Virus record (IMG/VR): IMGVR_UViG_3300028048_000075
Span: 1 to 64,000 of that record
Source of the DNA: a virus
Taxonomy: Duplodnaviria; Caudoviricetes
Length of the DNA stretch: 64,000 nt
Direction: 5' to 3' (one strand)
In this document: piece by piece, positions 20,526-39,526 of the stretch
How positions within the stretch are numbered: position 1 is the first letter of the stretch
How the letters are laid out: each line of letters starts with the position of its first letter
Made by a program: the position numbers and the translations under genes
Notes under the pieces: generated by a model
Database searches by the model: none
The model's input: the letters and a program-made list of their open reading frames with translations, nothing else
What the model was told of the DNA's origin: nothing

Positions 20526-20569
20526 GATAAGGAGAATAATTCTGAGAATTTTTACAAAATCTAGAACCT

Positions 20570-20692
20570 CGGCACTAAGAGGAGTTGAACCTACATCCTA
20601 CAAATGTTGTTACATAGACTAATGACGATCTCAAGATCTTCATGGAATCTATAAACACTCATTTGTCGTGCTCCATGCTACACTATAGTGCC
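20570..20692 (-). ncRNA. tRNA-like RNA with greatly extended anticodon arm (123 nt)
   Basis: Acceptor GGCACTA/TAGTGCC+G, D-arm GTGT-AGCATGGA-GCAC, T-loop TTCAACT. The anticodon arm is replaced by a ~70-nt irregular hairpin. Confidence 0.7.
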
Positions 20693-20700
20693 AAATAAAA

Positions 20701-34718: not shown

Positions 34719-34928
34719 ATGAAAAATCCATTTAAATCTGACGTTGTTAAAATGGTTATTATGCTTTTAACATGTGTTTCATTAATTGTAATCATAGTTT
34801 TACATAGTTTTGGAATAATTACTGAATTCGTTAAAGATGTTTCTATGCTATGTGTAATTTTGATATTGTTTTGCTTTTTGATATATGGAATAAAAGAATT
34901 TCATGATTTTAAAGACAAAAATGAATGA
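34719..34928 (+). CDS. Small two-TM membrane protein (69 aa)
   Basis: GAGGTG RBS, two hydrophobic helices, charged tail. Confidence 0.65.
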   Translation: MKNPFKSDVVKMVIMLLTCVSLIVIIVLHSFGIITEFVKDVSMLCVILILFCFLIYGIKEFHDFKDKNE

Positions 34929-35022
34929 TTTTTATAAGAAGGAGTTTTGCACTCCTTCTTTTTTATTTATATATTATAAAAATGCAAATTACAACAAAAT
35001 ATCAATAAAGGGGTGTTATATT

Positions 35023-37428
35023 ATGTCTGAAGCTAAAGCTGTCATTTATGATGATGATAATATTAAAACTTTGGATTCTATTAGTGCTATACGATTACGT
35101 CCAGCAATGTATGTTGATGGAATTGGAGAGTCTGGTTTATATAAGATCGATTGCGAAGCTGTTCAAAACATTTTTGATGAATATTTGGTTGGAAGATGTA
35201 CATCTTGTAACGTTGAATATAACTCATCTACAGGATATATGAGAGTTGAAGATGATGGCGCTGGAATACCTATTGGTAAAATAGTCGATATTTTCACTAA
35301 AGCTCATACTGGTGGAAAGTTTGATAGAGAAGCATATGAGATAAGTTCAGGCCAGAATGGTGTTGGCAGTAAGGCGATAAATGCTCTTAGTAAAAGTCTT
35401 AGAGTTGAAGTTTGGAGAACAGAATATGTCGATAGGAGTGATAATAAAGTTCTTCCTAAGCATGCTGTTTTACAATTTGAAAAAGGTCGTCTTAAAGATG
35501 AATTCTACGAAGATGTTCCAAATTCCACAAAACATGGTACGCTTCTTGAATATTATTCTGATGATGAAATAATGAAAACTAACGTTAGAAACGTTAGAAG
35601 ATTTGCAGATTATTTGAATATGAATTCTTATTTGCTTCCAGGAATTCATATTTCATATACCGTCGATGGTAAAGAAAATGTTTTCTATCATGAAGGTGGT
35701 ATATCGGAATTATTCACAAATCGTTTTATAAAAGAAAAACATGTCAAAACTATGTTCGACCATATAGAAGTTCATGGAAATGAACGAATGTTTAGTTTTG
35801 ATATAGTATTTTCATATAATCCTATAAATACTGGAGATTCAAATATTGTATCTGCTGTAAATGGAAATAACACTCCATTACATGGAGTACATGTTTCTTC
35901 ATTTAGAGCTGGTGCAGCATTAGCACTTACAGATTATTTGAAAGAAAACAGTGATTTGATACCGAAATCTTTGAAAAACGTCAATATTTCCGGAACTATT
36001 GTTGGTGACAATATAGTTGCTGTTGTTTCTGTAAAGCACAGAGAACCATTGTATAGTGGTCAAACTAAAGAAGCATTTAAATCTGATGATGTTCAAGAAC
36101 CAATTAAGCAAACTACACGTAAAGTATTTGCGAAATGGTTGAGAGATAATCCTCAGGGCGCTAAGAAATTAGTTAGCATGATTATTGATTATGCTAAGTA
36201 TGAAGAAGAGAGAAAGAAACTTAAGAAAAATCTTATTGAATCTAAGGTAGCTAAAAGTGCTTTTGCTGCTAATGGTGTAGATCCTACGAAATATACTACT
36301 TGTAGAAGTAATAATCCTGAAGAAAGAGAACTCTTTATAGTAGAAGGAGACTCTGCTGGTGGTAACGTAGTACTTGCACAAGATCGTGAATTCCAAGCAC
36401 TTTATAAACTTACTGGTAAGATTCTTAACGTTATTAAATCAAACACAAGTAACTTGAGTAAAGTTATTATGGAATTGGTGAAAATTCTTGGTATGGGATT
36501 ACCTACTAATGGAAATCCTCCTAATTATAAGAATTTACAATACCATAAAATAATCATATTGACTGATGCTGATGATGATGGTGCACACATCGCTACACTT
36601 CTATTGGCATTCTTTTATAGATTCTATCCAAAACTTATTGAGGATGGAAATGTATTTATTGCTAATCCTCCGATTAAGAAACTCACAATGTCTAATGGAA
36701 AATACTTCTATATTCATACTGAAGCAGATTACAGTAGACTTATGAGAGAATTCATTTCTGAATCATTTGAGTTAATCAGTGCTAAGAATGGATACGTCAT
36801 GTCAAAAGGTTTCTTTGAGGAATACATTTATCACATTCAGGGATATGATAACCTTATTGAAAACCATGCACATGCATTAGCGATCGACAATGATCTTCTT
36901 GAGCATATTATAATTAATATCAATATTCTCACTCAGTGTAGTGATAATAGAGAAGATAAGTTTAACAAAGCTTTTTATAAGAACACAGGGTTCTATGTAC
37001 GTAAAATGGTTGGTCAACCTTATTACACATTTGATAAAGGAACTTATCATGCTAACGTACGTATAGATAAGAATTTTATAGATCATCATTTTTATGAGAT
37101 TGCTGACAAGCTTAATGAAATCATGTATTACGGTTTATCTTTAAGGGGAAAACGCTCCGGAAAAGTTTACCGTGGTACAATATATTCTCTCATGAAAGTT
37201 ATGAATGGAATACTTGGACCTAAAGTCGATATCAAGCGATTTAAAGGTCTTGGTGAAATGAGTTGTAGAGATCTTACAGAAACTACGATTAATCCTACAA
37301 AGAGATTGCTTACTCAAGTGAGAATGTCTGATGCAGAAAAAGCCGACAGAGCTATGCAAATCTTCATGAACGACACTTACATAAAGTATAAGCGATTATT
37401 CTATGCTGGAAGGATCGATTTTGACTAA
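35023..37428 (+). CDS. gyrB: Type IIA topoisomerase (gyrase-like) B subunit
   Basis: IRLRPAMYV, EDDGAGIP, HTGGKF, GVGSKAINALS, VEGDSAGG, TDADDDGAHI, RFKGLGEM; start moved to MSEAK. Confidence 0.93.
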   Translation: MSEAKAVIYDDDNIKTLDSISAIRLRPAMYVDGIGESGLYKIDCEAVQNIFDEYLVGRCTSCNVEYNSSTGYMRVEDDGAGIPIGKIVDIFTKAHTGGKFDREAYEISSGQNGVGSKAINALSKSLRVEVWRTEYVDRSDNKVLPKHAVLQFEKGRLKDEFYEDVPNSTKHGTLLEYYSDDEIMKTNVRNVRRFADYLNMNSYLLPGIHISYTVDGKENVFYHEGGISELFTNRFIKEKHVKTMFDHIEVHGNERMFSFDIVFSYNPINTGDSNIVSAVNGNNTPLHGVHVSSFRAGAALALTDYLKENSDLIPKSLKNVNISGTIVGDNIVAVVSVKHREPLYSGQTKEAFKSDDVQEPIKQTTRKVFAKWLRDNPQGAKKLVSMIIDYAKYEEERKKLKKNLIESKVAKSAFAANGVDPTKYTTCRSNNPEERELFIVEGDSAGGNVVLAQDREFQALYKLTGKILNVIKSNTSNLSKVIMELVKILGMGLPTNGNPPNYKNLQYHKIIILTDADDDGAHIATLLLAFFYRFYPKLIEDGNVFIANPPIKKLTMSNGKYFYIHTEADYSRLMREFISESFELISAKNGYVMSKGFFEEYIYHIQGYDNLIENHAHALAIDNDLLEHIIININILTQCSDNREDKFNKAFYKNTGFYVRKMVGQPYYTFDKGTYHANVRIDKNFIDHHFYEIADKLNEIMYYGLSLRGKRSGKVYRGTIYSLMKVMNGILGPKVDIKRFKGLGEMSCRDLTETTINPTKRLLTQVRMSDAEKADRAMQIFMNDTYIKYKRLFYAGRIDFD

Positions 37429-37453
37429 ACCCAAATTTGTGAGAAATTATTGT

Positions 37454-37465
37454 AACATATAAATA
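37454..37465 (+). promoter_or_regulatory. Late-type AACA-N6-TA motif heading the RNA island
   Basis: AACATATAAATA inside the loop of the hairpin after gyrB. Confidence 0.45.
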
Positions 37466-37909
37466 TAATTTCTCACAAAGGGTTCGTTTTTGTACACCAG
37501 ATGTTCGAAGGGTTTTACTTTAGAGCATTTTGTTAAGAACATTTGGTCATTTTCGATTTTACAACTCTTTTTGAATTTTTGTAGAGTTTAATTCAGGATT
37601 CCGGAATAGACATCTATTACCCTTTGCATGGTAGGCGGATGCGTCGGCTGAGTCTCGAGACCGTAGGTTGATGGTCGGGATCCTGTTAAAATTAGCACAT
37701 ATCCGGTAATCGAGCAATTATCGAGTGTGCGGGGGTTTGGAACTTGCTCCTCTAGACCTGACAGCGGGGCGTCGACACAATTATCTAGTCGATGCTCCGC
37801 TATTTATTTTTTAAGCCTATCCACTTTCATGGTTTATGTTTTACCGGAAGTGGAGATTTTATAACTAGATTTTCTCCGTCATCTAGTCAAAACTATAGAT
37901 TTTTTTTTC

Positions 37910-38009
37910 GTCGGTTTGGTTTAGTGGCAGAACGCCTTGTATACTTGAATAGTTACTACACTCCTGTTTCAAGTTTGAGGAAACATATGTTCGATTCATA
38001 TAACTGACA
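37910..38009 (+). ncRNA. tRNA-like RNA with extended anticodon arm (100 nt)
   Basis: Acceptor GTCGGTT/AACTGAC+A, D-arm GTTT-AGTGGCA-GAAC, T-arm ATATG-TTCGATT-CATAT. A 36-nt hairpin insert replaces the 7-nt anticodon loop. Confidence 0.75.
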
Positions 38010-38203
38010 AAGTGAGCCCAAAATATAAAAAAGAGATTCGAGTCCATCCAATAAAACGATCTCCTGCTGAAGACAGCACAATTTTGGGTTTCACGTTTTG
38101 TAAACTTTTTGAAAGGTTGTTTACATTATCATTCGAATGGACTGGATATCTGTCCAGTCCATTTATTTTTTAAAATACAAAGTATATAATAATATATTTG
38201 TAA

Positions 38204-38276
38204 GGGATATTAGCTCAGTAGGTAGAGCAACGGACTGTTAATCCGTGTGTCGATGGTTCGATCCCATCATATCCCG
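38204..38276 (+). tRNA. tRNA-Asn (GTT)
   Basis: Canonical cloverleaf, anticodon arm ACGGA-CTGTTAA-TCCGT; no encoded CCA. Confidence 0.95.
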
Positions 38277-38279
38277 AGA

Positions 38280-38451
38280 CCGTATTGCGGAGTTGGCATA
38301 TACCAAGTGGATTGGAATTTTGTGCACTAGAAAAATTCTTATGTTTAATATCAGGTAATACTAGGTAATTCGTGCTGATAACTAAACGTAAAATAAAATC
38401 CCGCCAATGGCGATGAATACGGAACCCCGGATCGAAACTTTGGTGCGATAA
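38280..38451 (+). ncRNA. Multi-branched structured RNA between tRNAs
   Basis: Stems CCGTATT/AATACGG, TTGG/CCAA, GGATT/AATCC, GAATTTT/AAAATTC, TTATGTTTA/TAAACGTAA, TATCAG/CTGATA, CGCC/GGCG. Confidence 0.45.
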
Positions 38452-38499
38452 CGAATGACAGGGCCCTTTAGTCATTCGAAGTCAGTTTCGATTATTTTT

Positions 38500-38572
38500 G
38501 GACTTTTAGCTCAGACGGTAGAGCAACGCCCTTTTAAGGCGTGGGTCGCGGGTTCAAATCCCGCAAAGTTCA
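38500..38572 (+). tRNA. tRNA-Lys (TTT)
   Basis: Canonical cloverleaf, ACGCC-CTTTTAA-GGCGT; no encoded CCA. Confidence 0.95.
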
Positions 38573-38640
38573 TTGACCACGATAGAGATAGTGTAGAGTT
38601 TAAAACTTTTCCGAACCATTATCTTAGTAGTGGTCTTTAT

Positions 38641-38713
38641 TCGGATGTCGACAAGTGGTAAGTCAGTGGTTCTTGGTGCCACTATTCCGTAGGTTCGAAT
38701 CCTACCATCCGAT
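38641..38713 (+). tRNA. tRNA-Gln (TTG), with C33
   Basis: TCGGATG/CATCCGA acceptor, GTGGT-TCTTGGT-GCCAC anticodon arm, GTAGG-TTCGAAT-CCTAC T-arm. Confidence 0.85.
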
Positions 38714-38785
38714 ATTTGTACTAATGTGGATTCACATTGCTTTCCGGCTACATTTTGGTACAACCATGAAATTTTCCTCTTTTGG

Positions 38786-38820
38786 GTACACAGGAGTTTT
38801 CTCCTGTGTATCTTTTTTTC
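38786..38820 (+). terminator. Intrinsic terminator closing the RNA island
   Basis: tacacaggag-tttt-ctcctgtgta followed by a T-tract. Confidence 0.75.
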
Positions 38821-38866
38821 GTTCACAATTTTTGACATTTGAATATAACTGAAGAAGGAAAACAAT

Positions 38867-39526
38867 ATGAATAAAAAGAAAAGCTTATTCACTATTGTTA
38901 CATGTAACATGAAACCAAGACAAATGGGAAAAGAACTTAGAAAAATATTTGCACAAAGGTCTCATGAGTCAGATCTTTCATTCATGCAAAAGAATTCTAA
39001 AGAACACAAAAATTTAAGAGGGAATCAATATATTCTCCAAATAGATAATGGACGTAGTGTAGAGAGTTATTTCTTTACAGTATATAGTAGTCAGAATGGT
39101 TTCTATTTAATGGACAATAAGGAACTTAAAAAATTTCATACTGAACAGAATTGTCTTAAATATAAATTAGCAAAAACTTATCTTAGAAACCATAAATCAT
39201 CAGAATCGATACGTTATACATGTATCAAATCTAATGAACGATTGGTTTCTGGTGATATTTTTGATGTGCTAAATAACGGATATACTTATGGCAAGAGGGT
39301 AAATATAATGGCCAATACTACAGAAACTCTTAAAGAAAAACCATATAATAGGATTATCCAATTGTATGATACACTTAAACAATCTAGAGAAGTTGGAGTA
39401 TATGCCAGTTCTTTAGGAGCATTTGGTGAAGAAAATCCACATATAATTGGTGGATATATACTAAATGAGAAAAAAGAAGAATTAGACCCAAGTGAGGATA
39501 ATGACGATGGAACCAGCGAAGATTAG
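38867..39526 (+). CDS. Hypothetical late protein (219 aa)
   Basis: AAGGA RBS; GACA-N6-TA at 38834-38845. Confidence 0.7.
   Translation: MNKKKSLFTIVTCNMKPRQMGKELRKIFAQRSHESDLSFMQKNSKEHKNLRGNQYILQIDNGRSVESYFFTVYSSQNGFYLMDNKELKKFHTEQNCLKYKLAKTYLRNHKSSESIRYTCIKSNERLVSGDIFDVLNNGYTYGKRVNIMANTTETLKEKPYNRIIQLYDTLKQSREVGVYASSLGAFGEENPHIIGGYILNEKKEELDPSEDNDDGTSED

Follow-up and report, generated by a model that had tools for sequence, protein, structure and literature searches.

Genomic setting of the array

The DNA analysed in this study, referred to below as the window, comprises positions 1 to 64,000 of the IMG/VR virus record IMGVR_UViG_3300028048_000075, which has a length of 129.6 kb and is rated 46% complete. 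Downstream of a GyrB-like gene (34903-37428, assigned with Pfam) lies a 1.44-kb gap without genes (37429-38866), which extends to an open reading frame (ORF) of 219 amino acids (aa), ORF219. On its plus strand the gap carries an array headed by a candidate structured non-coding RNA (ncRNA) of about 350 nucleotides (nt), here named ncRNA-1 or unit 1, followed by a spacer, a second set of RNA elements (unit 2) and genes for tRNA-Asn, tRNA-Lys and tRNA-Gln (Table 1). A GyrB identical to that of the window is also carried by a 279-kb contig. The closest cultured relatives of this protein (about 30% identity) are those of Bacillus phages AR9, PBS1 and BpSp and of Yersinia phage phiR1-37, all of them phiKZ-related jumbo phages in which transcription is carried out by the phage's own multisubunit polymerases.

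A preliminary description of the window had drawn attention to an ORF-free island ahead of the tRNAs, locally richer in G+C, whose helices contain many G.U pairs that work only on the plus strand. These observations held. The G+C content rises to 0.515 at 37600-37799 and is about 0.30-0.33 in the surroundings. ORFs inside the stretch are at most 71 aa long and all are crossed by 1-nt indels between strains, so that none survives the comparison; the stretch was therefore taken as non-coding and a protein-coding region was rejected. The plus strand folds with a minimum free energy (MFE) of -206 kcal/mol (z score -6.5) and the minus strand with -167.6 kcal/mol, and changes in the stems pass through G.U pairs. 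Single elements also gave negative z scores (-2.4 for H3-H4, -2.3 for H5-H6, others in Table 1), the exception being the tRNA-shaped element at only -0.3. The helices, the multibranch and the three-way junction that had been named were all located, and their strands are given in the table. Inside the island, nothing besides the tRNAs gave a sign of paralogy.

Table 1. Features of the array and their positions in the window. bp, base pairs; groups A to C are defined in the text.
Feature	Position	Strand	Description and basis
Late promoter motif	37454-37465	+	AACATATAAATA, AR9-type AACA-N6-TA; predicted start A37465
ncRNA-1 (unit 1)	37465-37812	+	structured RNA of ~350 nt, predicted late start to T1 U tract; ends motif-inferred
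H1	37496-37547	+	5' hairpin ACCAGATGTTC/GAACATTTGGT (37496-37506 / 37537-37547); folds
H2	37563-37588	+	small AU-rich hairpin AACTCT/AGAGTT; RNAalifold, groups A and B, weak support
M	37594-37685	+	multibranch domain, 11-bp closing stem CAGGATTCCGG/TCGGGATCCTG and two compound hairpins (37611-37641 and 37642-37673); MFE = centroid, z -2.1
H3	37695-37730	+	outer GCACAT/GTGTGC, inner CGGTAAT/ATTATCG, loop YGAGCA; curated alignment of 8 sequences
H4	37733-37759	+	9-bp hairpin, two invariant G.U pairs, loop with UGCUC; comparative alignment
T1	37763-37812	+	intrinsic terminator: 14-bp GC-rich stem AGCGGGGCGTCGAC/GTCGATGCTCCGCT (37763-37801), 11-nt loop, tail ATTTATTTTTT; -25.6 kcal/mol
H5	37820-37854	+	9-bp hairpin TCCACTTTC/GGAAGTGGA, conserved U-rich loop AUGGUUU..GUUUUACC; alignment of 8 sequences
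Invariant block	37855-37892	+	38 nt, GATTTTATAACTAGATTTTCTCCGTCATCTAGTCAAAA, with hairpin H6 (37865-37870 / 37881-37886); conservation
tRNA-shaped RNA (unit 2)	37910-38009	+	ARAGORN with introns permitted: Leu(CAA) i(32,27)
Three-way-junction RNA (unit 2)	38012-38094	+	13-bp closing stem with one bulge, (GTGAG)CCCAAAAT/ATTTTGGG(TTTCAC); z -3.8
AU-rich hairpin (unit 2)	38099-38125	+	TGTAAAC/GTTTACA; fold, roughly neutral evolution
T2 (unit 2)	38135-38171	+	intrinsic terminator: 13 pairs, short apical loop, then TATTTTTT; terminator scan
AT-rich element	38179-38192	+	AAAGTATATAATAA, with TATAAT at 38185-38190, 12 nt before tRNA-Asn; invariant in groups A and B
tRNA-Asn	38204-38276	+
Structured spacer	38277-38498	+
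tRNA-Lys	38499-38573	+
Hairpin	38574-38640	+
tRNA-Gln	38641-38713	+
T3	38784-38813	+	terminator; terminator scan

Conservation of structure among relatives

Besides the window, unit 1 is carried by seven distinct related sequences (eight loci) from other metagenome assemblies, which gives eight sequences for comparison; the names of two of the relatives' records include "gut metagenome". The sequences were divided into group A (the window, L032 and L040), group B (L033/L034 and L041) and group C (L035, L037 and L038/L039). In groups A and B the C-terminal part of GyrB is 98-100% identical and the islands are 94-99% identical; the GyrB of group C is 80% identical overall. The gap of group C consists, in this order, of an extra small ORF, the promoter motif, an RNA of about 330 nt, a terminator, a hairpin, the invariant block and tRNA-Asn, followed by a spacer, a terminator, tRNA-Met and tRNA-Lys. 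It has no counterpart of 37900-38200, that is, of unit 2, and the block leads straight to tRNA-Asn. Because of this absence, and because the island has two internal intrinsic terminators, the first of them kept in group C with a new stem, the single large ncRNA considered in the preliminary description is not supported and was rejected. The long-range pairs of a 721-nt single-sequence fold were also rejected, their partner segment being missing from group C.

Two side observations concern the same loci. A 206-aa gene with a Pfam hit to formate/nitrite transporters is situated inside the array, after the second terminator, in L035 (7830-8450) and L037 (6591-7211), and is missing from L038 of the same group. 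Over residues 480-841, group B GyrB (P0007/P0083) and that of the window share 98% identity, as against 76% over the full protein, which indicates a recombination breakpoint within gyrB; in the ORF219 region downstream the divergence is again far below that of gyrB.

In a plain MAFFT alignment of H4, H5 and H6, the 24 pairs are 100% paired, and in six of them both partners have changed. Of 500 shuffles, none reached the observed covariation score or number of doubly changed cells, and 63 reached the number of doubly changed pairs; slid controls gave 0-1. In a model-fitted alignment of M, H3 and H4, 94.6% of the cells are paired and 30 pairs are changed on both sides (shuffles, 11.4 +/- 2.4 doubly changed pairs; slid controls, 1-8). 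The homologues collected from related phages thus keep the architecture through compensatory changes across three lineages, as expected of a structured ncRNA.

The many inverted repeats, together with a 38-nt block that occurs only once in the record of 129.6 kb and hardly varies over the eight sequences, might also be expected of an element that acts as DNA, such as an origin, a packaging site or an array of inverted repeats bound by a protein. This explanation is very improbable. Many of the pairs are G.T pairs, which on the other strand become A.C mismatches (the two invariant ones of H4 and four of the eight pairs in hairpin B of M), and substitutions pass through G.T intermediates. The plus strand folds better than the minus strand by about 38 kcal/mol, and the unit is bracketed by promoter and terminator motifs.

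The amount of change was compared with that at the four-fold sites of gyrB, which differ by 0.07-0.14; the interspersed segments of the island (the H2 region, the T1 loop, the hairpin and T2) differ by 0.10-0.15. Within groups A and B, M has 0-4 changes in 92 nt (about 13 expected from the gyrB four-fold sites), the three-way junction, found in these groups only, 1-4 in 86 nt (about 12 expected) and the invariant block 0 in the 39 nt counted (about 5 expected). The changes in the three-way junction are in loops or at the junction, except for one innermost hairpin pair in L041. The H2 segment (37548-37593) evolves at close to the neutral rate, its 46 nt having 3-7 changes. Among GyrB relatives of 60-77% identity (IMG/VR and JGI metagenomes), the slot between gyrB and the ORF219 homologue contains small ORFs or unrelated spacer and nothing resembling the island; the slot is therefore variable.

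Such a slot, with other small ORFs in other relatives, could have accumulated decayed remnants, either what is left of defunct tRNA genes or spacer hairpins that are neutral and have no function of their own. The near-neutral evolution of the H2 region, the hairpin at 38099-38125 and T2 agrees with this idea, as does a tRNA-shaped element that is unable to decode as it stands. For the core elements, however, the idea is already disfavoured: the conservation of M, H3, H4, the block and the three-way junction far exceeds that of the four-fold sites or the interspersed segments, stems stay paired through changes on both sides at 80% GyrB identity, and M, H3 and H4 have no tRNA features. As an explanation of the array it is hardly credible.

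Unit 1: promoter motif, core and terminator

The late promoters of AR9 have the consensus AACA-(6N)-TA/G, of which the final base is the transcription start (PMC5312081). The AACA-N6-TA motif that the preliminary description had noted at 37454 is real, and by its motif AACATATAAATA is a candidate late promoter of the AR9 type, as used by the non-virion RNA polymerase. Together with its flanks (TATAACATATAAATATAA) it is kept in all three groups, and the neighbouring sequence diverges; in groups A and B it occupies the loop of a hairpin (37436-37450 / 37465-37479). The pattern [AG]ACA-N6-TA was found within 70 nt upstream of 23 of the 105 crude genes, a fivefold excess over the 4.6 expected. As a side observation, it is typically placed 24-49 nt ahead of start codons, with G as frequent as A at the first position.

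An early-promoter-like consensus, TTTATATATTATAWTAATG, has about 22 copies in the record; it closely resembles the consensus of the early promoters of AR9, AAATATATATTAT-(6N)-G. It was not found ahead of tRNA-Asn, where 38179-38200 deviates from it at several positions on either strand. A scan for promoters of the sigma-70 type gave merely weak matches (9 of 12).

Within unit 1, strain differences in H1 (C-G to U.G in L033, G.U to A-U in L041) preserve pairing on the plus strand only; group C has a different hairpin at this position. The closing stem and hairpin A of M show changes on both sides in the model-fitted alignment. In group C, M has a long closing stem around three hairpins and shares the block GCGGAU..GUCGGC.

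H3 and H4 stand in tandem. The 7-bp inner stem of H3 is paired in all eight sequences, with five of its seven pairs differing on both sides between groups A/B and group C; in the curated alignment its outer stem is paired in 46 of 48 cells and the loop YGAGCA is kept. H4, preceded by the conserved junction GUGCGGGG and followed by GACA, is 100% paired, and in three of its pairs both partners have changed. Its loop motif UGCUC is complementary to GAGCA in the loop of H3, and both motifs are invariant save for CGCUC in L037. A loop-loop contact or an alternative helix is possible; as the loop columns are invariant, they afford no covariation test of the contact.

The preliminary description had listed the 14-bp helix but had missed the U tract (ATTTATTTTTT) that follows it, by which the helix is identified as an intrinsic terminator, T1; it had also missed the second terminator, T2. 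T1 was overlooked by the terminator scan because of the scan's loop limit of 8 nt. The terminator that had been given at 38786 is real and corresponds to T3. Judged by sequence, T1, T2 and T3 each combine a GC-rich hairpin with a U tract. At the position of T1, group C has a hairpin followed by a U tail, and the stem of this hairpin (AUAACCCCUCG/CGAGGGGUUAU, -19 to -27.7 kcal/mol) is entirely different in sequence. A conserved late motif, a conserved core, a terminator kept with a new stem and, in group C, occurrence free of unit 2 would mark unit 1 as an independent gene.

A terminator at the same position in all groups might instead belong to a cis-acting leader or attenuator, whose fold of about 300 nt would decide between a stop at T1 and read-through into the tRNA-like and tRNA genes. 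The array is headed by one late promoter, with neither phage class of promoter found before unit 2 or tRNA-Asn, and AR9 has a single tRNA gene, which is of the late class (PMC5312081). In addition, in both groups the conserved G run at the H3/H4 junction, GCGGGG, occurs again in the G-rich strand of the terminator and could therefore compete for the C-rich one. The competing helix would have only 4-6 pairs, however, and its formation in groups A and B would require the displacement of a 14-bp stem with a nearer 5' strand. No riboswitch or T-box match, even a weak one, was obtained (Rfam, E<=10), and stable pairing of H3 and H4 was seen in all sequences, without any hint that an alternative fold is selected for. 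We regard an attenuator as rather unlikely.

The spacer between the units

H5 is 100% paired in the eight sequences, with three pairs changed on both sides and a further change of A-U to G.U in L040 and L041. The block that follows is nearly identical in group C (one substitution and 1-nt loop indels across the relatives). Its end is about 17 nt before the tRNA-shaped element in the window and about 17 nt before tRNA-Asn in group C. A scan of IMG/VR with a DNA pattern did not find the block, and compared with the early and late promoter consensus it matches neither. A pseudoknot between GGAGA at the foot of H5 and UCUCC in the loop of H6 was considered and rejected, since group C does not preserve it.

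Unit 2 and the tRNA genes

The tRNA shape of 37910-38009 had not been recognised in the preliminary description. The element has a 7-bp acceptor stem, a D arm, a 4-nt variable loop and a T arm with the loop UUCGAUU, and its acceptor stem, D arm (GG) and T arm (UUCRANY) are spaced as in a tRNA. In place of the 7-nt anticodon loop there are 36 nt that fold as an extended arm. The ARAGORN call with introns permitted was repeated in L032, L040 and L041 and was lost in L033, where the junction is changed. By its anticodon loop the element departs from the tRNA model: plain ARAGORN made no call, RF00005 gave no hit at E<=10, and the element cannot decode as it stands.

An intron-bearing tRNA-Leu was considered for this element and rejected. 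The shape is that of a class I tRNA, the inner helix uses the proposed loop, UUCAAGU, as its 3' strand, and the junction, on which the call in L033 was lost, is the most variable part among strains. We know of no splicing route in bacteria or phages for such a 27-nt insert.

The arms of the three-way junction are GAGAT/ATCTC with a 21-nt loop and CUGCUG/CAGCA. T2, which evolves about neutrally, has A-U, U-A or G.U as its basal pair in different strains. The AT-rich element beyond it has a similar counterpart after the second terminator of group C and may be a promoter, although it matches neither the early nor the late consensus.

Several side observations were made on the tRNA genes and their surroundings. 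A hairpin in the spacer of about 220 nt between tRNA-Asn and tRNA-Lys changes from TATCAG/CTGATA to TGTCGG/CCGATA (L032) and to TGTCGG/CCGACA (L033), so that two pairs are changed on both sides through a G.U intermediate. The 67-nt hairpin between tRNA-Lys and tRNA-Gln is missing from L027, in which these tRNAs are a few bases apart; relatives L028-L031 have no tRNA-Gln. Right before T3 there is a C/U-rich sequence, CATGAAATTTTCCTCTTTTGGG (38757-38780), and 33 nt ahead of the start of ORF219 a late-type motif, GACATTTGAATA (38834-38845). Both are kept in all relatives, including those with 68-71% ORF219 identity.

Elements resembling tRNAs with an enlarged arm were also seen elsewhere. One such element is on the minus strand of the window, at 20565-20697: its acceptor stem is perfect, D and T arms are present, and a rod of about 70 nt takes the place of the anticodon arm (MFE -39.9 kcal/mol, z -3.2); its sequence is unrelated to that of 37910-38009. 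In a 264-kb relative (G001), between tRNA-Leu and tRNA-Lys (L012, 3174-3322), an acceptor-like 7-bp stem (GGTATAG/CTATACC) and a T arm (GTGAG TTCGATC CTCAC) are separated by an irregular rod of about 100 nt. Look-alikes of tRNAs in which an arm is expanded are therefore a recurrent feature among related jumbo phages.

The layout of the array bears on a further explanation, by which it would be one late precursor of about 1.35 kb, from 37465 to T3 (38813), with T1 and T2 serving mainly as 3' protective hairpins of the products of tRNA processing. In agreement with this, the one phage promoter that can be recognised heads the array, a strong terminator closes it and tRNA or tRNA-like elements punctuate it; the stable RNAs I and II of T4 come from its tRNA region, as mapped in PMC2330249. 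T1 and T2 have, however, the complete anatomy of intrinsic terminators, each with a U tract; the AT-rich TATAAT element after T2 is conserved between groups; and there is no tRNA-like handle between ncRNA-1 and H5 or the invariant block. A single precursor is the less expected arrangement, though it carries some weight. As to the related proposal of a polycistron of small RNAs released by tRNA processing, made in the preliminary description, the second half of the island fits it (a tRNA-like element, a three-way junction and a terminator), and this remains a conjecture.

Searches for known and related RNAs

Rfam 15 was searched with families that include RNase P, transfer-messenger RNA (tmRNA), 6S, signal recognition particle (SRP) RNA, GOLLD, ROOL, YrlA, T-box, group I and II introns and small ribozymes. 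At the gathering score only tRNA-Asn, tRNA-Lys and tRNA-Gln were reported. At E<=10 over 37300-39000 the remaining hits were noise far under the cut-off, and likewise for the group C island of L038. ARAGORN in tmRNA mode found no tmRNA. That no RNase P, tmRNA, SRP or 6S signatures could be seen in the preliminary description agrees with these results, and its proposal of a novel structured ncRNA on the plus strand is backed by the conservation, the compensatory changes and the lack of an Rfam match.

When the island was compared by blastn with 50,697 phage records, only the tRNAs were matched. A covariance model built from groups A and B only (R1) recovered the group C copies, at E values of 3e-6 to 1e-3, and nothing else. 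With a model built from the eight sequences (R2), no copy was found in G001 (94% complete, GyrB 60% identical), in G002 or in the other loci fetched; over all these loci and the two whole records, the hits of R1 and R2 belonged to groups A-C only. Scans of IMG/VR with DNA patterns for the multibranch, the invariant block and a tRNA-Lys anchor gave no new member, the anchor matching G001 only, and a degenerate pattern of the H3-H4 core had no match in IMG/VR or in GTDB genomes. On these grounds ncRNA-1 appears to be a new RNA family, of a kind that is already known, namely the stable RNAs of phage tRNA clusters.

Interpretation

From the observed motifs, conservation, compensatory changes and modular presence or absence, we infer transcription, RNA ends, processing and function as follows. 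The reading to which we lean, at somewhat better than even confidence, is that this stretch opens a modular RNA-gene array in an AR9-like jumbo phage, with at least two separate plus-strand units that would yield trans-acting, stable RNAs made late. The phage's non-virion RNA polymerase would probably start unit 1 at A37465 from the AACA-N6-TA late promoter, and the transcript would probably end at T1. Its conserved core would be the multibranch with the tandem hairpins H3 and H4, whose loops GAGCA and UGCUC are able to pair. Unit 2, which follows H5 and the 38-nt block, would comprise the tRNA-shaped RNA, the three-way-junction RNA and T2. RNase P and the enzymes of 3' tRNA processing would cut at the tRNA-shaped element and so free the flanking RNAs as stable small RNAs, in the manner of T4 species I and II. 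Our best guess is that these RNAs bind protein, act in trans and are made late alongside the phage tRNAs.

Several points weigh against this reading. That polymerases of the AR9 type stop at such hairpins is an assumption; leaky T1 and T2 would allow the array to be a single late precursor, and the lack of a phage-class promoter before unit 2 and tRNA-Asn makes read-through from the single late promoter a serious alternative. The covariation draws on three lineages only, and the alignment used for M, H3 and H4 was made to fit the structure in the model, which favours pairing. The 5' third (H1 and H2) cannot be aligned between the groups, although both sets have hairpins there, and the junction of M is three-way in groups A and B, as against four-way in group C. 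The neutral yardstick is rough because divergence varies along a mosaic region, ORF219 having one change in about 60 four-fold sites. Within the searches made, the family is limited to one small clade of uncultured phages.

More speculatively, the array could be a phage RNA toolkit directed against tRNA-based host defences or translation, for instance with decoys of anticodon nucleases, or ncRNA-1 could be a sensing leader that gates the late supply of tRNAs. The neighbouring tRNA classes (Asn, Lys and Gln) are among those that anticodon nucleases attack. We consider this a long shot; if it were true, such RNAs would be a new functional class of phage RNA.

Phage tRNA clusters contain stable RNAs whose roles are still unexplained fifty years after T4 species I and II. 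The array described here offers a cleanly delimited example, with a promoter motif, a terminator and a two-hairpin core, in a phage that uses its own polymerases, and natural variants already indicate which pairs matter. Its weight is limited by the confinement of the family to a small clade of uncultured gut phages.

Comparison with known systems

Intron-bearing tRNA genes resemble 37910-38009 in that ARAGORN models the element with a 27-nt insert in the anticodon loop. It differs from them in that no group I match was obtained over 37300-39000 (Rfam, E<=10); to our knowledge the tRNA introns of bacteria and phages are group I ribozymes of more than 200 nt. Moreover, a bacterial tRNA-Leu is incompatible with a class I shape.

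YrlA and other bacterial Y RNAs, tRNA mimics to which Ro60/Rsr binds, share with 37910-38009 a tRNA-like module and an elongated helix in the position of the anticodon arm. In YrlA, the ends of the RNA are on the anticodon side and the acceptor is capped; those of 37910-38009 are at the acceptor, as in a real tRNA, and Rfam gave no match for it. Some jumbo phages carry a TROVE protein (Ro60/Rsr; PMC7824862). No TROVE gene (PF05731) was found in the 129.6-kb record (46% complete) or in G001 (94% complete).

Like ncRNA-1, GOLLD and ROOL are structured, phage-borne and adjoin tRNA genes. ncRNA-1 has no match to them in Rfam at E<=10, its unit is modular and about 350 nt long as against 500-800 nt, and the island has internal terminators and lacks one half in group C.

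The nearest likeness in kind is to T4 species I and II (rnaC and rnaD), non-coding stable RNAs other than tRNAs that occur among phage tRNA genes and have no assigned function. These RNAs are freed by the tRNA-processing enzymes and are about 120-140 nt long. They are shorter than ncRNA-1 and show no sequence likeness to it (blastn, 50,697 phage records). "RNA species I and II" were mapped in the T4 tRNA region (PMC2330249). Unlike them, ncRNA-1 has its own promoter motif and terminator, and it belongs to a phage with its own multisubunit polymerases.

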